Positions 165 to 11,800 of a DNA stretch of 37,066 nt are shown piece by piece (positions within the stretch are counted from its first letter, which is position 1; every line of letters begins with the position of its first letter). The position numbers were made by a program, and so were the translations under genes. This DNA comes from Thermoplasmataceae archaeon (GTDB lineage: Archaea; Thermoplasmatota; Thermoplasmata; Thermoplasmatales; Thermoplasmataceae). Where the stretch lies: assembly GCA_046704325.1 (NCBI GenBank), contig JBJKSG010000013.1, positions 1-37,066 of the forward strand, read 5' to 3'. Below the pieces are notes generated by a model. The model saw nothing but the letters and a program-made list of their open reading frames with translations. It was not told the DNA's origin and did no database searches.

Positions 165-857
165 GTGAGGATGCCAGTTGAGGGAAAAGAGCAAGGAAAG
201 CGATCTGCAGCGCTGAAAGCTATCCAATACGTGAAACCGGGCATGCTTCTCGGATTAGGTACCGGGACTACGACGGCCTATTTTGTTGATATCCTCGGTG
301 AGCAAGTTGCCCAGGGCCTTAAGGTGAGGGGTATTCCAACATCCAGGGACACTGAGGACAGGGCCAGGAAACTTCGGATAGAGATAGCTTCTCGAATTGA
401 TGGTAGGATAGATATCGACTTTGACGGGGCAGATGAGGTTGATTCCATGGGAAACCTTGTAAAAGGCGGCGGTGGTGCACTTACGAGGGAGAAAATAGTT
501 GCAGAGAACAGCAGGAACTTCTTTGTCCTGGTAGATGAATCAAAGCTGACTAAAGGGAATCTCAAAAGAAGTAAGATCCCGGTTGAAGTGCTCCCCTTTC
601 TACATGAATCGACAGCCCGTAAGATATCCGCCCTCGCGAGAGATGTAATCCTTAGAGAAGGTTTCGTGACAGACAATGGAAATTACATCGTCGACTGTTA
701 CTTCAATGAAATTGAGAATCCTGCTGATTTAGAGAAGGAAATAAAAATGCTTCCGGGCGTGGTGGAAGTTGGTCTCTTTATCGGTCTGGCTTCAAAGATT
801 ATAGTTGGCAGGGAAGACGGAACCTCATACGAGATAAATACTGGATCTAACGCTTGA
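165..857 (+). CDS. rpiA: ribose-5-phosphate isomerase A
   Basis: 230 aa ORF with RpiA motifs (LGLGTGTT, DGADEVD, KGGGGALTREK). Start is probably the ATG at 171 (MPVEG...) rather than the GTG at 165. The 3' end overlaps the convergent ORF 847..1203 by 11 nt. Confidence 0.85.
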   Translation: MRMPVEGKEQGKRSAALKAIQYVKPGMLLGLGTGTTTAYFVDILGEQVAQGLKVRGIPTSRDTEDRARKLRIEIASRIDGRIDIDFDGADEVDSMGNLVKGGGGALTREKIVAENSRNFFVLVDESKLTKGNLKRSKIPVEVLPFLHESTARKISALARDVILREGFVTDNGNYIVDCYFNEIENPADLEKEIKMLPGVVEVGLFIGLASKIIVGREDGTSYEINTGSNA

Positions 858-1203
858 AACCCTTCAGTTTCTCGATCTTGCCGTTTATTTCGTCTATCTC
901 GGTTGAGAGATCCTGAATTATCTCCTCAAGAATTTCATTGAACCCCTTGGAGAGCTTATAACCATGAATGGGTCTTCCCTTTCCTTCCTTCTTCATGTTT
1001 CGCTTATTGACCCAACCGCGCCTGCGGAGCCACTGCATCGCTATCGAGACTTCCGGTTGCCTCAGACCAGTCTCCCTCTCGATCTCCACGCTTGTGATTT
1101 CTCCCTTGTCCCTGATATAAACGAGCGTGTAAGCCACGCTTCTAGGAATATCAGACAAGATAAGTGACCTTGCTAGCTTTTCTCCTTCTTCAGATATGGG
1201 CAC
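847..1203 (-). CDS. small winged helix-turn-helix transcriptional regulator (ArsR/MarR-like) with C-terminal coiled coil
   Basis: 118 aa. HTH-like segment VAYTLVYIRDKGEITSVEIERETGLRQPEVSIAMQWLRRRGWV followed by a wing (GKGRPIHGYKLS). An AT-rich promoter-like region lies at 1204-1260. Family assignment is uncertain. Confidence 0.55.
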   Translation of the reverse strand: MPISEEGEKLARSLILSDIPRSVAYTLVYIRDKGEITSVEIERETGLRQPEVSIAMQWLRRRGWVNKRNMKKEGKGRPIHGYKLSKGFNEILEEIIQDLSTEIDEINGKIEKLKGFKR

Positions 1204-6094: not shown

Positions 6095-6175
6095 TATACT
6101 ATGTTATTTAATTTCAATGGATTACTTTGCAGGTTGCAGGCAGACCGCTTCAGAAACGAAAAAGTACTTTGAAGA

Positions 6176-6183
6176 TTTATAAA
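6176..6183 (+). promoter_or_regulatory. TATA-box-like element upstream of tRNA-Tyr
   Basis: tttataaa is centred about 28 nt upstream of tRNA position 1 (6208), the usual archaeal TATA-to-TSS spacing. Confidence 0.4.
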
Positions 6184-6207
6184 GGAAGGATAGATTCCCT
6201 TCGCAAA

Positions 6208-6309
6208 CCCGGCTTAGCTCAGTTGGTAGAGCGGCGGACTGTAGAGGATTTCCATTGAAGGATTGCCGCCGTAATCCGCAGGTCTCTGGTTCGAATCCGG
6301 AAGCCGGGA
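6208..6309 (+). tRNA. tRNA-Tyr (anticodon GUA) with a 29-nt intron at the canonical 37/38 position; CCA not encoded
   Basis: Folded by hand. 7-bp acceptor stem CCCGGCT/AGCCGGG with C1:G72, the archaeal/eukaryal tRNA-Tyr identity pair. D-arm GCTC-AGTTGGTA-GAGC. Anticodon stem GCGGA/TCCGC with loop CUGUAGA (anticodon GUA). Intron about 6245-6273 (aggatttccattgaaggattgccgccgta), whose 3' part ccgccg can pair with cggcgg of the anticodon stem (BHB-like). Variable loop AGGTC. T-arm TCTGG-TTCGAAT-CCGGA. Discriminator A. Mature length 73 nt. Confidence 0.85.
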
Positions 6310-6808
6310 TTTCTAACATGATTCGGTACCTACCATAGTGTAGGAACCAGAATCATATTCGGCTCAAATGGTTGAAATATATTTTTCCTACGTTAAACGG
6401 GCGGGTTTTGTTTTTTCTTAATGCAAGAGTTTACCCCTTATCAGTCCGCTCATTTTCTCAAGTTGAATTTCCATGAAAATAGGTAGAGACTTTCCATTAT
6501 AGCAATCCGTCATGGACATTGCGGTTAAACCTTCCGTCCTTTGCCGCCATAGGGCCCATTCTATGGCGATCATCTGCCGTTATTTCGTTTACGAATAAAG
6601 TGATAGAGAGTGTTAAAATTTCTGCTTCTACAATCTAAAAGTAAGATGGTGTAATAATCATTACATCATAGAGATACTTGATCCCGAAACGCCGAAAATT
6701 TCACTGACCAGGGCATATTTTGATGTAAGATATCTAACGGCTAACGACTGGCATAGAATTGTGCAAAATGTTTATATCTCCCCAAACATGCAAATTTAGG
6801 TCAAGAAA

Positions 6809-7936
6809 ATGCATAAGACGTCTGTCAGTCGATTGCAACCTTTTCTATCGATGTCCAAATATTTTGTTGCTTTTGCAACAATGATATTGATCCCTGGACT
6901 TTTCTTAGGTACGTTTAACCAACTCAATTCAGCGCCGAATAACAGCATGCAACTAGCAGTCACCAACGAATCAGCCCACCAGGGTGATTTGCAACTGCCA
7001 TCGACAATTAATAAACTTAATCTTCTACTTAAGCAAGACTTTACTTCATGGTCAAAAAGAAACAAGGTCCAAGTACCATATAACCAGAATGCAAGGATGG
7101 AAGTGTTCGACAGATTTCTGAATAGCAGCAACTATGACGCACAAGCGATGAATAAGTTGACCAGGCTTCAAGAGCAGTCGTTTGGCCTTCAAAATCCGAC
7201 AAAGGCTTCGCAAAATGCATACGTGATTAACCACAGCAAACCTACCGTTATTGGATCCGAAGCTTTCTCTTTGCATGGTCAAAATTACACTGTACTGAAG
7301 GTCAACTACACTCTGCAAGCAAATAACTCTGAAAATATAGTTTCTGCAGCTGTTGTAAGATCTCAAAATGGAAGCCAAATCATTGATCCTCTTGTAGCTG
7401 CTCGGATCGATTATTTATCTGCGTGGCTGATAGGCACATATGGGGAAGTAGATTATATTTACCAGAATTACTTCTATGACACAGTTTCTTTCACGGGAAC
7501 TAATTTAAACGAAGCCTATGCTTATTATGCCGTTTTGCAAGCAATCCAACTTGGTGAGCTTAGTGTAGCTTTCGTTTCAGGTATAGTAGCTTACATGGCA
7601 TCCATATTAGGATTGTCCCTTTGGGTTTTTACTGCGGGATGGGATGCGGCGGATACGACAATCATGCTTCAGACATATGAAAAAGCTTACAATGCCGATT
7701 TGGGGACTGGATACGTTCCAACGGCACTTCAAAATGATTATCTCTACACATGGTACTTTGGAGTTTTGACCGGTAATGGGTGGGGAATACATGTATATGT
7801 GGACGGAACAGGATGGGAAAACGGCCTGATCCCAATGGCATTTAGTGGAATAGATTCAGTTCATCTTTCTAACATTGCGCATTCCTTTGTTAATGAATAT
7901 GGAAATCAGTGCATCTGGCTGGGGGCATACCAGTAG
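6809..7936 (+). CDS. hypothetical secreted/membrane-anchored protein
   Basis: 375 aa. N-terminal hydrophobic signal/anchor (FVAFATMILIPGLFLGTF) and a hydrophobic segment near residue 250. No recognisable catalytic motifs. An alternative ATG is at 6851. The gene appears by eye to sit in lower-GC sequence downstream of the tRNA (not computed). Confidence 0.45.
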   Translation: MHKTSVSRLQPFLSMSKYFVAFATMILIPGLFLGTFNQLNSAPNNSMQLAVTNESAHQGDLQLPSTINKLNLLLKQDFTSWSKRNKVQVPYNQNARMEVFDRFLNSSNYDAQAMNKLTRLQEQSFGLQNPTKASQNAYVINHSKPTVIGSEAFSLHGQNYTVLKVNYTLQANNSENIVSAAVVRSQNGSQIIDPLVAARIDYLSAWLIGTYGEVDYIYQNYFYDTVSFTGTNLNEAYAYYAVLQAIQLGELSVAFVSGIVAYMASILGLSLWVFTAGWDAADTTIMLQTYEKAYNADLGTGYVPTALQNDYLYTWYFGVLTGNGWGIHVYVDGTGWENGLIPMAFSGIDSVHLSNIAHSFVNEYGNQCIWLGAYQ

Positions 7937-7939
7937 GGG

Positions 7940-8527
7940 TTGATCCGTATTTCGATTGTTTTAATTTTGATATTGCTCTGGATTTTGACTTTGGTACCAG
8001 GGATAATTTATGTTTCTCTAGAAATCAAGAGACTGCGTCGAACAAGACTTTCAATGGTTTCCTTCCCTGTATCTTCATTAGGGGGATATGTTGTAATAGC
8101 TGCATATGAAAGTATTACCAACATCAATAATGTCAACTACCACTTTACGTCCTTTTTTTTCTATCTTGCAACCGCAGGTTTTATTGTTATGACAGTTGCA
8201 TATATTGCGGTTGAATTATCTATTCGTCTTCATATAGAACTCCAAGGTAATATGGTTAAACCCAAAGTTTTCAGGAATAAGCATAAAAGCGTTAAAGCCC
8301 CGTTGGAAACAGATGATGAAATTATAAAGAATGAGAGGTACCTGCGTTTCGCATTCATGTTATCCCTTATAGCTTGGCTCTCATTATATGGATTCCGCTA
8401 TCTAAATCTTATTCCAGATGACTTCCTTTATAGCGGGGCTTTATTGCCGTCAGTTGCGTTGTTCACGATATTATTCTTCCTTTTCTGGGTTCTTTACTAT
8501 TTCTCATCAAGAAGAGTCAGGCATTGA
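7940..8527 (+). CDS. hypothetical integral membrane protein (about 4 TM)
   Basis: 195 aa. Starts 4 nt after the preceding stop, so probably co-transcribed. Four strongly hydrophobic helices (ISIVLILILLWILTLVPGIIYV, FFFYLATAGFIVMTVAYIAV, LSLIAWLSLYGF, PSVALFTILFFLFWVLYYF). Confidence 0.45.
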   Translation: MIRISIVLILILLWILTLVPGIIYVSLEIKRLRRTRLSMVSFPVSSLGGYVVIAAYESITNINNVNYHFTSFFFYLATAGFIVMTVAYIAVELSIRLHIELQGNMVKPKVFRNKHKSVKAPLETDDEIIKNERYLRFAFMLSLIAWLSLYGFRYLNLIPDDFLYSGALLPSVALFTILFFLFWVLYYFSSRRVRH

Positions 8528-8897
8528 TTGATAATATTTCTTAGGATATCCAGCCTCGTTTGCCTTCATTTATGGAAATAAACCTAATCCTAACTTCACC
8601 TCAGTTTTAAACTGTGATTACTGGGCGACAAAGTGTTTTACCGCATCTTGCATTACAAAAGTGTTCAGAAATGCAATGTTTTTATTATGAGGGCCATCAG
8701 AAGTACCTGCACATCGGCGATTACAGTAATGGGAGGGTGAAACGCAAAACAATAGTAAATAAATTCCCCCTCCTTAACGTCAATAAAATATATTTTTATG
8801 ATTGATTGTGCTTTTGAAGCTTCACTCAGGCCAAGCCGGAGCATGAACCCTATCATTGAAACAAGAACCCAAGGAATTCCGATCTCGCGACATGGAT

Positions 8898-9458
8898 TTA
8901 ACCTCGATTTGCAACGTCACCAATCTTTGAAGCATATTCTCTGAGTTTTGACCAGTTCACTTTCTTCTCCAAAGAGGACATGGTTTCAGGGTCCAGATTA
9001 ATGTTATAGTATTCGAAATCAAGTAGGGTCTTCTCCAAGTCTGATACTGGAACAAATAGGCCTCCGTAATTCAGATATTCAAAGCCAAATAATGCTTTTT
9101 CATCAATCCTGTGCAATATTATTTTGATTCCCATTATCTCACGTACCCCGGGGTTTGCCATGGTGTTCGTTATAATTACAGGAACGGACTGTTGTGTCCA
9201 GATCTTTCTAATTGTTAGTGCATACTGAAGTCCATAGTAAAATGGCCTGAACTTGAATCCAACTGCGACTTCATTTCGGTGAAATGTGTATGCCCCCTTG
9301 CCCAATCTGTACAATCTTCCAGATTTGACAAGGTTGTGAAGCATCAGTCTTATGTAGGGTTCACCTGCTCCTTGACTAACCAGAAACCTTCTTGCATCAT
9401 TTGTAGTGAACATGGTCTGCTTTGAAAAGAATTCAATGAAGTATGTCTCATATTTCAT
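8898..9458 (-). CDS. AbiEi-like (COG5340) winged-HTH protein, putative antitoxin/transcriptional regulator of a type IV TA or abortive-infection pair
   Basis: 186 aa. The N-terminal wHTH carries the characteristic G-L-R-x-RGvY motif (LVKSGRLYRLGKGAYTF). The C-terminal domain carries the conserved (E)(R/K)TLLD motif (VSDLEKTLLDF). It overlaps the upstream NTase gene by 11 nt, which suggests translational coupling. Confidence 0.65.
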   Translation of the reverse strand: MKYETYFIEFFSKQTMFTTNDARRFLVSQGAGEPYIRLMLHNLVKSGRLYRLGKGAYTFHRNEVAVGFKFRPFYYGLQYALTIRKIWTQQSVPVIITNTMANPGVREIMGIKIILHRIDEKALFGFEYLNYGGLFVPVSDLEKTLLDFEYYNINLDPETMSSLEKKVNWSKLREYASKIGDVANRG

Positions 9459-10089
9459 TTACCCACCTTTTTATATAATCTACCATGCGAACAAAATTCA
9501 GACCTTCAGCTCCAGCATAAAGGAGTGAACTCAATATGCCTTCGTTAACAGGCGCTTTTATTTCACGTAAGAAATTTGACAATTCCACTTTCACTGTGTA
9601 ATCCGTCTTGTCTAACCAGTTTGTCAGAACATAAAGATCATAAATGTCCCTTATAAATCTCCTGCCATGGTAGGCTTCTATCTTCCTGATCATCAATTCT
9701 GTCGGGCTTAGCACGCTTATTGTCTTAACGCTCCCATCGGTTCGCGAATAAGCCCTTATCTCATTTTCAGCGAATCCAGGTTTTGATTCAATGAGGATGT
9801 CAATTTCATTTCTGCCAATCCTAGCCCTTGTCGGAAGATCTGGGTCCTGCCAAATAAGCTTCATACCATTTTCTTCTAGAGATGAGATGAAGTCATCAAA
9901 TGCAGTTCTCTCAAGGTAGATGTCAAGACCATCTGAAAAACGCATTCCTCCAAAACATCTACAGATTGCAGTACCACCATAGAGGAGTGCATTACTCTGG
10001 AAACTATCATAAATTAGGTCTATCACATAATCCTGAAGTTCAGCAAGCCTCAGCCTTTGACCACTAAGGTATGATCCAATTGGTTTCAC
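9448..10089 (-). CDS. AbiEii/AbiGii-family (DUF1814) nucleotidyltransferase, putative toxin
   Basis: 213 aa. N-terminal NTase motif hGGTA(l) ... R(F)SxDLD(i) is present as LLYGGTAICRCFGGMRFSDGLDIYLE. C-terminal RDlYDL motif is present as RDIYDLYVL. Both are family signatures from established knowledge; identity was not measured. Confidence 0.7.
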   Translation of the reverse strand: MKPIGSYLSGQRLRLAELQDYVIDLIYDSFQSNALLYGGTAICRCFGGMRFSDGLDIYLERTAFDDFISSLEENGMKLIWQDPDLPTRARIGRNEIDILIESKPGFAENEIRAYSRTDGSVKTISVLSPTELMIRKIEAYHGRRFIRDIYDLYVLTNWLDKTDYTVKVELSNFLREIKAPVNEGILSSLLYAGAEGLNFVRMVDYIKRWVNEI

Positions 10090-10511
10090 TTAAATATGTA
10101 ATTGTTATATTATATTATAACTTTCACTGATTGTTTGTTGATGAATAATTCAGTTAATATATTTACTTAGGCAGTGTGTGCGAAATAAGTTGAACCGATT
10201 AGCTGCAAAGTATATTTTTTCATCAATTTGTCGAGATTTAAGAGAATTTGAGTTAGCAACTCTTCGTAAATCTATTCCTTCGTTCGGTATAGAATATTGA
10301 TCTCATAATATCTGGGTCCTATCATTATTTATCAGATAAACAGAGTTCTTTTAGCCATATTCTAATACAGTTCCGATCTGGGAATAACTGCTCATCCCAC
10401 CTATGCCGTTTCTTATAACGATTTTCTTCATGAGTGTTTAGAACAGTTCCTTCTGACATGATACCAAGTACCTGTAAAGCACATGCATATACAGTATGAG
10501 CAGTTTCAAAA

Positions 10512-10528
10512 TATATATATATATATCA
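10512..10528. repeat. (AT)8 dinucleotide repeat / TATA-like promoter element
   Basis: atatatatatatatatc lies immediately upstream of ORF 10536..11291. The spacing fits a leaderless start at the ATG at 10548 better than at 10536. Confidence 0.5.
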
Positions 10529-10535
10529 AAGAAGC

Positions 10536-11291
10536 ATGGTTTTGAATATGCTCGAGAAGAGGAGCAGGTGGATCGCATTCTTCTCTGTAATAGCTGCGAT
10601 TATTGTGATAGTATCTGTGTTATACTATGAGACGCCTCAACAAAGAAATGCTCCTTGCCCCCTACAACCTAATGTAACCATACATAACGGCACTCTGAAT
10701 CATACCTGGAACGGAGCCTTCGTATTCTCAATATCCGTATTAGGCAATTTATCAACGGTACTAACAATAAGTGAACCCGGCTACCCTGAATCCACTGTAA
10801 ACCTTTCGATTCGGGGGTTCGGTATTTCAAACTGTATTATTGATTTCTTTGTGAACGTCTCCGGTCATCTCGCAACGAATCTTCCGATCTCATCATTTGT
10901 TCTGAATCAGACCTTATCGGGCCCACCCCAGGCCATGAACCGCTTCATGCTTGGTGATATGGCAGGTAACCCGCAGAATTTTATACCTCAGTACAAGTGG
11001 TTCAATTCTACCCCAAATTGGGGGAAGACGATAAGGTTCTTCCCGGCGACTGTCGGTACAAATGAATTCTACTTTGGACTCTCCTTATACTCTAACCTTA
11101 CAAACGATACAATTCCGGAATCCAACAACAGCAGCCTGTATAACTTCTCAAGTTTTGAGTGCAGCATAATCTACGTAACTAATTGGGAGTCAAACACTTC
11201 TTGGCAGTACAATTATAACTTCCCCTTATCCATGATTGGACTGACAAAGCAGGTTAGTTCCCAGATCGATCTTAGGCTTGTGGATGGATAA
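10536..11291 (+). CDS. hypothetical secreted protein with N-terminal signal anchor and very high N-glycosylation sequon density
   Basis: 251 aa. Signal anchor WIAFFSVIAAIIVIVSVLYY. At least 15 N-x-S/T sequons (NGT, NHT, NLS, NVS, NQT, NST, NLT, NDT, NNSS, NFS, NTS...). Start may be the ATG at 10548. Confidence 0.45.
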   Translation: MVLNMLEKRSRWIAFFSVIAAIIVIVSVLYYETPQQRNAPCPLQPNVTIHNGTLNHTWNGAFVFSISVLGNLSTVLTISEPGYPESTVNLSIRGFGISNCIIDFFVNVSGHLATNLPISSFVLNQTLSGPPQAMNRFMLGDMAGNPQNFIPQYKWFNSTPNWGKTIRFFPATVGTNEFYFGLSLYSNLTNDTIPESNNSSLYNFSSFECSIIYVTNWESNTSWQYNYNFPLSMIGLTKQVSSQIDLRLVDG

Positions 11292-11329
11292 GCTATAAAT
11301 GATTTTATATCTTAGTAAGATGGTGGATT

Positions 11330-11800
11330 GTGCCAAAAGTTGCAGTCATAATGGGCAGCAAAAGCGATCTCCCGGTGATGCAAGAAGCTATTGATGTCTT
11401 AAAGAGCTTTGGCATCGAAGTTGTCTCGAAGGTAGTTTCTGCCCATAGGACTCCATCTCTAATGTATGAGTTTGCGCGTGAAGCTGAAAAGAATGGAATT
11501 GAAGTTATAATTGCTGCGGCCGGAGGAGCTGCACACTTACCAGGTATGACTGCATCTCTTACTTCTCTTCCCGTAATTGGGGTTCCGATACAGACAAAGG
11601 CGCTTGCGGGCGTTGACTCGCTCTATTCGATAGTGCAGATGCCTTATGGAATACCGGTTGCAACTGTAGCGATCGGCGGGGCAAAGAATGCTGCTCTACT
11701 TGCAATTCGCATCCTGTCCATAAAACATGAAGAGCTAAGGGAGAGACATAAAACCTTCATGAAGACTCAGACAGAGGACATCCTGAAGGACCCGCTATGA
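11330..11800 (+). CDS. purE: N5-carboxyaminoimidazole ribonucleotide mutase (class I PurE)
   Basis: 156 aa. [12 protein letters not shown] and SAHRTP (class I signature). GTG start. Stop overlaps the purK start (ATGA). Confidence 0.9.

Follow-up and report, generated by a model that had tools for sequence, protein, structure and literature searches.

AbiE modules, as described in L. lactis and S. agalactiae, pair a nucleotidyltransferase toxin (AbiEii) with an antitoxin (AbiEi), and the MenAT systems of Mycobacterium tuberculosis are built from similar proteins. AbiEi autoregulates via inverted repeats, and auto-phosphorylation takes place at T65 of AbiEii and at S78 of MenT3, the Ser/Thr phospho-acceptor being conserved across the family. 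Besides defining motifs III and IV of AbiEii, mutational work showed that D67A, D67E, D69A and D69E abolish its toxicity and that D67A/D69A reduce GTP binding (PMC3985639); likewise, D80A abolishes both the toxicity and the nucleotidyltransferase activity of MenT3 (PMC7450476). The precedent for a toxin-first order rests on RlegTA, whose DUF1814 toxin gene was described as lying upstream of a COG5340-type antitoxin gene (bioRxiv 10.64898/2026.01.19.700257). AbiE is not new in archaea either, since the PygAT pair of Pyrococcus yayanosii (COG5340-COG2253, island PYG1) has been published as a functional toxin-antitoxin system of AbiE type.

Here we describe an AbiE locus in a 37,066-nucleotide stretch of archaeal DNA, referred to below as the window. 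The locus is an ordinary member of the known family, its two genes can confidently be annotated as an AbiEii/AbiEi-family module, and nothing in it overturns the current understanding of AbiE or MenAT systems. Taking all the evidence together, we consider it fairly probable that this is a toxin-first AbiE cassette whose genes are translationally coupled, which would regulate itself by analogy with its relatives and which has been disarmed in this copy.

The toxin-antitoxin pair and its gene order

The pair consists of two adjacent, co-oriented genes with the following features:

9448..10089, minus strand: toxin gene, a DUF1814/AbiEii-family nucleotidyltransferase of 213 aa with a GTG start (ORF call, Pfam, PADLOC, AF2, Foldseek)
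8898..9458, minus strand: antitoxin gene, AbiEi-like (COG5340), of 186 aa with an ATG start (ORF call, PF13338, PADLOC, AF2, Foldseek)
9448..9458, minus strand: overlap of toxin stop and antitoxin start, 11 nt, ATGAAATATGA (ORF coordinates)
9463..9468, minus strand: Shine-Dalgarno-like AGGTGG, 4 nt upstream of the antitoxin ATG (sequence, homologue comparison)

Single-sequence phmmer searches of both proteins against PDB sequences returned nothing useful, so that profile and fold searches were needed. The PF08843 AbiEii profile matched the toxin with 38.1 bits (E=2.1e-9, cut-off 22.5) over profile positions 10-175 of 238. Fifteen PADLOC AbiEii models matched it as well (best E=1.9e-11); in NCBIfam it had no match. 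Its AF2 model has a pLDDT of 95.2, and the top Foldseek matches of this fold were MenT3 (6y5u, E=1e-5), JHP933 (4o8s) and MenT1 (8an4). The antitoxin scored 28.0 bits against PF13338 AbiEi_4 (cut-off 25) and gave 17 PADLOC AbiEi matches, the best being PDLC02267 (E=2e-15, residues 9-181). Its model (pLDDT 92.6) was closest to 6y8q, the AbiEi of S. agalactiae (E=1.7e-6, 192 columns), followed by Rv2827c (1zel). Against the NCBIfam equivalog NF047376 (type IV TA AbiEi family antitoxin) it reached 13.3 bits, far under the cut-off of 150. It comprises an N-terminal winged HTH and an AbiEi-type C-terminal domain, and every family-invariant residue is present in the alignment. Thus the family assignment of both proteins made in the earlier note is borne out by Pfam, PADLOC and the predicted folds, with both Pfam thresholds exceeded, and the peptide strings that it quoted all occur in the translations.

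Outside the first position of its catalytic aspartate pair, the toxin preserves the motifs of the family. Motif I is Y37-G38-G39, matching hG[G/S], and G38 is kept in 99% of the relatives. Motif III reads K136-I-E-A-Y-H-G-R143 (fitting KLxAaxxR) and motif IV R147-D148-I-Y-D151 (fitting +DxxD), with K136, R143 and D148 invariant in all 171 aligned sequences. Ser52, the putative phospho-acceptor located two residues before the first catalytic Asp position, is also invariant in the family and corresponds to T65 of AbiEii and S78 of MenT3.

Searches recovered about 90 clusters of toxin homologues and 71 of antitoxin homologues, with E-values down to 1e-114. The closest come from Thermoplasmatales and Ferroplasma MAGs or isolates, in agreement with the Thermoplasmatales-like host proposed earlier, and several homologues already carry AbiEii/AbiEi-type names at NCBI. 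The toxin-first subfamily is found in Thermoplasmatota, Micrarchaeota and other DPANN, plus a few matches in genomes of CPR, Asgard and Nitrososphaerales. The pairing is kept in 77 of 80 homologous loci, archaeal or CPR, with the antitoxin directly downstream of the toxin, mostly with an overlap of 11 nt (26 loci) or 4 nt (ATGA, 30 loci); the antitoxin-first order of canonical AbiE is absent from the window and from these 77 relatives. The toxin-first order and the 11-nt overlap had been recognized correctly from the two ORFs. The portrayal of this order as an unusual reversal did not hold: among the Thermoplasmatota, Micrarchaeota and other DPANN relatives the toxin regularly comes first, coupled over 4 or 11 nt, and the order has already been described for RlegTA.

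We infer that translation of the antitoxin is coupled to that of the toxin and that AGGTGG serves as its ribosome-binding site. This hexamer sits inside conserved K/R-R-W codons of the toxin C-terminus, and AGGTGG or GAGGTG is found at the same position in most close homologues. A separate antitoxin promoter inside the toxin gene was also considered, but the relatives show no conservation of the TATA-like string that lies 10-22 nt ahead of the antitoxin ATG.

Upstream block, cassette extent and surroundings

Three features delimit the cassette and its control region:

10099..10129, minus strand: conserved 31-bp block at -40..-10 from the toxin start, CAGTGAAAGTTATAATATAATATAACAATTA (conservation over 12 loci)
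10116-10121 (GTTATA) and 10104-10109 (TATAAC): inverted repeat GTTATA-N6-TATAAC within the 31-bp block
8920..10134, minus strand: conserved bicistronic two-gene cassette of about 1.24 kb (blastn vs L081, L083, L002, L003, L005)

The 31-bp block is near-identical in 12 loci, in which third codon positions are 46% identical and the -90..-46 regions 29%, and it is unique within the window. We read it as a BRE/TATA-like promoter with a putative operator. In the clade of the window the 6-nt arms of the inverted repeat are not significant (p ~0.15-0.4 vs shuffles of the same AT-rich sequence). The operator reading is suggested by the conservation of the block together with the longer palindromes of distant relatives, whose arms of 9-13 nt lie at the same place and show symmetric compensatory changes. 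Each of the few classes of operator half-site is probably monophyletic. When metagenome contigs were scanned with two operator patterns, the first gave no matches and the second gave six, all AT-rich and unrelated to AbiE genes. A sigma-70 promoter and terminator scan gave no excess over shuffles; its bacterial model is not applicable to an archaeon.

Based on blastn comparisons, DNA homology to the relatives begins about 45 nt before the start codon of the toxin and runs to the 3' end of the antitoxin gene, with unrelated flanks, and the closest homologues occupy different gene neighbourhoods. The promoter element of about 31 bp travels with the cassette and is a ready candidate operator for an archaeal AbiEi.

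The earlier note had placed the pair in a low-GC patch next to a tRNA gene, a setting that it called typical of mobile defence islands. The tRNA gene is:

6208-6309, plus strand: intron-containing tRNA-Tyr(GUA) (Rfam)

ARAGORN found no tRNA, while Rfam detected this intron-containing gene. The low GC content is real but modest: the pair has 40.1% GC vs 44.4% for the window, which is the 14th percentile of equal-sized windows, and the 5-kb interval between the tRNA gene and purE, at 39.2%, falls in the lowest 1%. The tRNA gene is real too, but it lies 2.6 kb from the pair with two ORFs between them. The island itself, whether as an integrated element or as a defence island, was rejected because there is no integrase near the pair, no att-like direct repeat of the tRNA 3' end in 6100-11400 and no defence match in Pfam or PADLOC among the neighbours, which are housekeeping genes or orphans. 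Searches of IMG/VR and PLSDB yielded no viral or plasmid homologues.

If it resembles AbiE of S. agalactiae and MenAT of M. tuberculosis, such a cassette could work as follows. A single transcript, short-leader or leaderless, would carry both genes, and the antitoxin would be made by translational coupling to the toxin. The antitoxin would repress the promoter through the palindromic element and would also bind the toxin, inducing auto-phosphorylation of the invariant Ser52 and so neutralising it. In AbiE the D85-I87 loop of AbiEi reaches T65, and the invariant W87/Q89 loop of the present antitoxin is a candidate for a similar contact with Ser52. If active, the toxin would extend the 3' ends of tRNAs by nucleotides and thereby halt translation.

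Loss of the first catalytic aspartate

In motif II the toxin deviates from its family at one codon:

9928..9930, minus strand: codon 54, GGT (Gly), at the first metal-binding Asp position of the DhD motif (sequence, alignments)

This motif reads R50-F-S52-D53-G54-L-D56, so R50, S52 and D56 are kept and the first catalytic Asp is replaced by Gly. The window has RFSDGLDIY where the family consensus is RFSEDIDIY, and position 54 is Asp in 85% of the non-redundant relatives. The R-x-[ST]-x-D-x-D spacing is identical to that of R63/T65/D67/D69 in AbiEii and also matches S78/D80 of MenT3; by alignment and spacing, Gly54 corresponds to D67 of AbiEii and D80 of MenT3. A profile search of PDB sequences aligned RFSEDLDF of JHP933 and RFSTDLDF of MenT4 to the same motif. 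Some activity might conceivably remain if metal were bound instead by the adjacent Asp53, a position that most relatives fill with Glu.

The toxin also carries W43C and D182N, at positions kept in at least 98% of the relatives, and starts with GTG, where the close relatives listed have ATG. Because of D54G, together with these two substitutions and the GTG start in place of ATG, this toxin copy has most likely lost its catalytic activity altogether or retains little of it. We read the pair as a probably disarmed module whose antitoxin/regulator is intact, and not as a working abortive-infection system. The earlier note had called the module active-looking and had named beforehand a substitution in the D-x-D residues as evidence against it; that substitution is present, at Gly54. 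The toxin is not a long-decaying pseudogene, since its ORF is intact and purifying selection on it is as strong as on the antitoxin (dN/dS vs the closest relative 0.10 for the toxin and 0.12 for the antitoxin). Pairwise dN with L083 as outgroup revealed no toxin-specific acceleration, the window branch being about 1.7 times that of L081 for the toxin and about 1.5 times for the antitoxin.

The same position has been lost repeatedly in the clade. Among 148 non-redundant relatives, counting independent changes as minimum numbers, we found at least 18 at D54, at least 9 at D56 and at least 11 at E101, and none at R50, S52, K136, R143 or D148. About one third of the members are hit at these metal-binding carboxylates, and the residues that replace the catalytic Asp are G, N, Y, V, E and S. 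Cultured Ferroplasma species carry SEGIYIY and SEGSDIY at motif II, and the double mutant SEGIYIY of Ferroplasma acidiphilum is unchanged on many contigs. As an anecdote in favour of disarmament, the only contig-internal locus with a truncated antitoxin gene (L027) has a D54E/D56E toxin.

Three other explanations of Gly54 were weighed against a disarmed cassette. A fully active toxin-antitoxin or abortive-infection module, with a nucleotidyltransferase that works despite Gly54 and with the pair giving protection from viruses or keeping a mobile island stable, would agree with the two intact ORFs, with the preservation of motifs I, III and IV and of Ser52, with dN/dS values near 0.1, with the undamaged promoter block and coupling signals, and with the change of E53 to Asp directly beside the lost residue, which might provide a metal ligand. 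However, even the conservative D67E kills the toxicity of AbiEii and D80A the activity of MenT3, and residue 53 precedes the beta-strand of positions 54 and 56 (54-58 by DSSP in the AF2 model), and along a strand neighbouring residues project to opposite faces. W43C, D182N and the GTG start add to the evidence of D54G, and the locus has neither neighbouring defence genes, integrase and att repeat nor detected viral or plasmid homologues; we regard an active module as unlikely. Less credible still is the idea that Gly54 stems from a mistake in sequencing or assembly, or from a minority allele, of this metagenome-assembled contig, whose real gene would have Asp54 and encode an ordinary active toxin. 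The protein is known from a single contig (a cluster of one) and GGT is one base from GAT, but the unusual W43C, D182N and GTG start of this gene make a base-call error at codon 54 improbable. Moreover, errors have no reason to gather at residues critical for function, and the same kind of replacement occurs in many independent assemblies and in cultured Ferroplasma.

The toxin might instead be a dead pseudo-enzyme kept for a non-catalytic role, such as binding nucleotides, tRNA or the antitoxin, acting as a co-regulator or serving as a decoy that confers immunity to related incoming toxins. The concentration of replacements on the metal ligands, with R50, S52, K136, R143 and D148 spared, speaks for this, all the more as AbiEii toxicity is also lost on mutating the counterparts of R50, K136, R143 and motif IV (PMC3985639); so do the persistence of SEGIYIY in F. 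acidiphilum and the low dN/dS. Yet the replacing residues look like random single-base neighbours of Asp and not like a tuned substitution, and the slightly higher number of changes that the variants carry at other conserved sites (0.47 vs 0.22, p=0.011) suggests relaxed constraint. That the ORFs are intact may also reflect that ribosomes have to read through the toxin gene to reach the coupled antitoxin, and no non-catalytic function is known for the family. For this copy we find such a role improbable; that the dead AbiEii proteins of the clade, this copy included, are kept by selection as pseudo-enzymes is a rather doubtful proposition too. If it were true, dead AbiEii would act as a nucleotide-, tRNA- or antitoxin-binding partner, as a co-regulator or as an immunity decoy. 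The contrasting reading of these proteins is that they are transient wrecks.

Repeated loss of the catalytic aspartates with the rest of the active site frozen is relevant to the way in which chromosomal toxin-antitoxin modules become disarmed, and also to why a toxin gene has to keep its reading frame open once translational coupling ties the antitoxin to it. Profile tools such as PADLOC and Pfam score the pair as AbiE despite the missing catalytic residue; as they overlook this loss, the DhD motif should be checked before such a pair is counted as functional defence.

Comparison with known systems

The window locus shares with AbiE of L. lactis and S. agalactiae the same two protein families and folds and the bicistronic layout. 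Common to both are toxin motifs I, III and IV, the Ser/Thr phospho-acceptor two residues before DhD, the antitoxin N-terminal wHTH with its AbiEi-type C-terminal domain, and a repeat-containing promoter element. It differs in having the toxin first, in a shorter toxin (213 aa), in its archaeal host and in the first catalytic Asp missing from this copy. The antitoxin is only about 19% identical to 6y8q and does not reach the NF047376 cut-off. In AbiE two 23-bp repeats lie over the -35/-10 elements, whereas the window has one short palindrome over the TATA box.

Names in toxin-then-antitoxin order were reportedly given to RlegTA, SanaTA and SdenTA alike in the shotgun-cloning analysis of Sberro et al. 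in 2013. Compared by description and not by sequence, these three systems resemble the window in placing a DUF1814 toxin before a COG5340-like antitoxin; they differ in being bacterial and, in the case of SanaA, in a much shorter protein (136 aa). Defence against phage T7 has been shown for SanaTA and RlegTA, whereas nothing comparable is known for the archaeal clade.

Of the MenAT1 and MenAT3 systems of Mycobacterium tuberculosis, the latter provides the best structural match of the toxin, MenT3, whose S78-x-D80 arrangement is that of S52-x-D54; MenA3 is a COG5340 antitoxin, as in the family of the window. By analogy, the mechanism would likely be the same, namely nucleotidylation of tRNA 3' ends neutralised by antitoxin-induced auto-phosphorylation. 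However, in MenAT the antitoxin comes first, identity is about 15%, MenT3 has 288 aa and the equivalent of its D80 is Gly in the window. PygAT, the archaeal pair, is also listed with the antitoxin first (PYCH_15320, then PYCH_15330) and has a toxin of 253 aa. It resides in an island that bears an integrase and is bounded by tRNA-Gln and att repeats; no such island feature accompanies the toxin-first cassette described here.

The gene pair and its family

The earlier note had described two ORFs, and both were found in the window at its coordinates, on the minus strand, with all the peptide strings it quoted. They share 11 nt.

9448-10089 (-), toxin gene, 213 aa, GTG start (ATG in the close relatives listed)
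8898-9458 (-), antitoxin gene, 186 aa, ATG start

The upstream protein passes the curated Pfam threshold for PF08843 AbiEii (38.1 bits vs 22.5) and the downstream one that for PF13338 AbiEi_4 (28.0 bits vs 25). Fifteen AbiEii and 17 AbiEi models of PADLOC matched as well, the best AbiEi match covering residues 9-181. AlphaFold models made from family alignments were confident (pLDDT 95.2 for the toxin and 92.6 for the antitoxin); their best solved-structure matches were MenT3/TglT, JHP933 and MenT1 for the toxin, and S. agalactiae AbiEi (6y8q, E=1.7e-6, 192 columns) and Rv2827c for the antitoxin. Based on these Pfam, PADLOC and structure matches, the proposed AbiEii/AbiEi assignment is secure. 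The antitoxin did not reach the narrow NCBIfam AbiEi equivalog (13 bits vs 150), so the pair are distant members of the superfamily. Every family-invariant residue was found in the window antitoxin, and several homologues already carry the NCBI names AbiEii/AbiGii toxin and AbiEi antitoxin.

Catalytic residues of the toxin and of its relatives

Motif II of the window toxin reads RFSDGLDIY vs the family consensus RFSEDIDIY, and a profile search aligned JHP933 (RFSEDLDF) and MenT4 (RFSTDLDF) to the same columns. A glycine occupies the catalytic position.

9928-9930 (-), codon 54 of the toxin gene, GGT (Gly)

The R50-x-S52-x-D54-x-D56 spacing equals that of R63/T65/D67/D69 in S. agalactiae AbiEii, and S52/D54 are spaced as S78/D80 in MenT3. 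Toxicity of AbiEii is abolished by D67A, D69A and even D67E or D69E, and GTP binding is greatly reduced in the D67A/D69A double mutant (PMC3985639); MenT3 D80A loses both toxicity and nucleotidyl transfer (PMC7450476). The earlier note had called the module active-looking and had itself named a substituted D-x-D as evidence to the contrary; with Gly54 in place, that description is not supported.

The same site has changed repeatedly in the clade, as estimated by Fitch parsimony on a neighbour-joining tree of 148 non-redundant full-length toxins.

Minimum number of independent changes at toxin positions (window numbering)
D54: 18, with six different replacing residues
E101: 11
D56: 9
G39: 7
R50, F51, S52, T40, C45, K136, R143, D148: 0

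Alterations at G38, G39, D54, D56 or E101 were found in 51/148 toxins, and at D54 or D56 in about 27 of the 148. The altered toxins deviate slightly more at other highly conserved columns (0.47 vs 0.22, one-sided Mann-Whitney p=0.011). Both catalytic aspartates are replaced (SEGIYIY) in every copy listed for the Ferroplasma acidiphilum cluster, and the F. acidarmanus Fer1 toxin shows SEGSDIY; the proteins of the two species are entries P0009, P0162-P0169, P0064 and P0175. The Fer1 gene is called N-terminally truncated (165 aa) beside a 168-aa antitoxin, and NCBI labels the toxins of F. acidiphilum and F. acidarmanus Fer1 'hypothetical protein'. Homologous locus L027 (1764-2560), whose toxin carries D54E/D56E, is the sole contig-internal locus with a truncated antitoxin gene, cut after ~28 codons, and judging from its sequence appears to be a decayed module. 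The rest of that antitoxin is replaced by unrelated GC-rich, tRNA-like-looking sequence.

S. agalactiae AbiE and M. tuberculosis MenAT suggest, by analogy, how such a pair would work. Toxins of the family, when active, would add nucleotides to tRNA 3' ends and so halt translation. The antitoxin would bind the toxin and make it auto-phosphorylate the Ser/Thr that stands two positions ahead of the first Asp (Ser52 here); it would also repress the promoter.

In our reading, point mutations that hit the metal ligands have repeatedly disarmed the toxins of this clade. For the window copy, we consider it likeliest that the toxin is disarmed while the antitoxin/regulator still works, a view held with somewhat more belief than doubt; as a killer the pair is probably not functional. 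Residual toxin activity is a rival: motifs I, III and IV are intact, as are Arg50 and Ser52, the presumed phospho-acceptor, but the AbiEii and MenT3 mutants speak against it. When the window pair is compared with its nearest relative, L081 (83% identical in amino acids), dN/dS comes to 0.10 in the toxin and 0.12 in the antitoxin, so the toxin has not long been under neutral drift. Its frame is plausibly kept open because antitoxin translation is coupled to it; a retained non-catalytic role is the rival account, and the other essential residues, never altered, leave room for such a pseudo-enzyme. Gly54 might also be a base-call error in this copy, which departs from the family at W43C and D182N too, where at least 98% of relatives keep the conserved residue.

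Upstream block and genomic setting

A conserved element precedes the toxin gene and occurs once in the window.

10099-10129, 31-nt block, -40 to -10 from the toxin start, CAGTGAAAGTTATAATATAATATAACAATTA

It is nearly identical in 12 loci, in which codon third positions are 46% and the -90 to -46 regions 29% identical. The BRE/TATA-like GAAAGTTATAATA inside it is centred near -27, which would fit a leaderless or very short-leader transcript. The block also holds the inverted repeat GTTATA-N6-TATAAC, whose 6-nt arms in this clade are not significant vs shuffles of AT-rich sequence (p 0.15-0.4). Distant relatives, including Micrarchaeota, have palindromes with 9-13-nt arms at the same position, and these arms differ symmetrically, in a compensatory manner (AAGTTATA/TATAACTT, AAACTTATA/TATAAGTTT, AAGATATA/TATATCTT). 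AbiEi autoregulates via inverted repeats in its promoter (PMC3985639), and by analogy the block is likely an antitoxin operator overlapping the TATA box.

DNA similarity to relatives spans window 10134 to about 8920 and ends there, and the neighbourhoods of the closest homologues are unrelated (one adjoins a second, divergently oriented AbiE pair), so the cassette is self-contained and measures about 1.24 kb. The Thermoplasmatales contig DAHXNF010000040 bears two toxin-first pairs, divergent and back to back (L001, 4412-5685 (-) and 6001-7183 (+)), the second toxin carrying G39S; a second pair likewise lies at L083/L084, 6412-7643 (-). This suggests that cassettes accumulate side by side.

The window pair lies inside a 5-kb interval from tRNA-Tyr(GUA) to purE/purK; no other 5-kb stretch of the window is as poor in GC (39.2% vs 44.4% for the whole window).

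6208-6309 (+), tRNA-Tyr, anticodon GUA, ~30-nt intron in the anticodon loop (Rfam RF00005, 57.8 bits; missed by ARAGORN)
6809-7936 (+), 375-aa ORF, no Pfam/PADLOC match
7940-8527 (+), 195-aa ORF, no Pfam/PADLOC match, looks multi-pass membrane
10090-10535, intergenic, 446 nt, 30.9% GC, separating the toxin start from the divergent 251-aa ORF
10536-11291 (+), 251-aa ORF, no Pfam/PADLOC match, rich in N-x-S/T sites

Relatives share only the first ~45 nt of the intergenic region, which make up the promoter block; the remainder had no Rfam match. The tRNA-Tyr 3' end is not repeated in the next 5 kb, where an att-like repeat is absent, no integrase or other defence gene was found in the surroundings of the pair, and the viral contigs and plasmids searched held no homologue; the idea of a mobile defence island beside a tRNA was therefore not borne out. 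Elsewhere in the window, PADLOC weakly matched a 118-aa ORF at 847-1203 (-) to Csa3 (E=6.5e-5) and to a CARF-type model. Only two findings add to a routine annotation: the catalytic aspartates are lost recurrently and in a site-specific way, and the promoter element is portable.

Gene order and known systems

In 80 fetched genomic loci with toxin relatives, where both genes were placed by profile HMMs, the antitoxin ORF lay downstream of the toxin on the same strand in 77; two of the exceptions sit at the end of a contig or close to it, and the third is L027. Overlaps of 4 nt, seen in 30 loci, and of 11 nt, seen in 26, were the most frequent, and an AGGTGG- or GAGGTG-like string stands a few bases ahead of the antitoxin start. 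In the window, the K/R-R-W conserved at the toxin C-terminus is encoded, as at homologous positions, by bases that double as an SD-like sequence for the antitoxin.

9463-9471 (-), AAA AGG TGG

This dual constraint, coding and ribosome binding, may lie behind the near-invariance of W209.

The relatives come from Thermoplasmatota and from DPANN archaea, Micrarchaeota among them, with a few in Asgard and Nitrososphaerales genomes and in CPR bacteria. Thus, the reversed order and 11-nt overlap pointed out in the earlier note are present, but toxin-first is a clade-wide trait and not peculiar to the window. A Micrarchaeota contig (L076, 952-2299 (-)) carries a toxin-first pair plus a second, very distant antitoxin-first (canonical) AbiE pair, so both layouts coexist in one genome.

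The earlier interpretation is upheld in part, and the arrangement it singled out is already known. PygAT of Pyrococcus yayanosii is a published functional AbiE-type pair from an archaeon. RlegTA, SanaTA and SdenTA have been treated as COG2253-COG5340 pairs, and the gene for RlegA follows that for the DUF1814 toxin RlegT (bioRxiv 10.64898/2026.01.19.700257). The toxin-first arrangement is not new for the superfamily: in RlegTA, as in the window pair, the DUF1814 toxin gene comes first.
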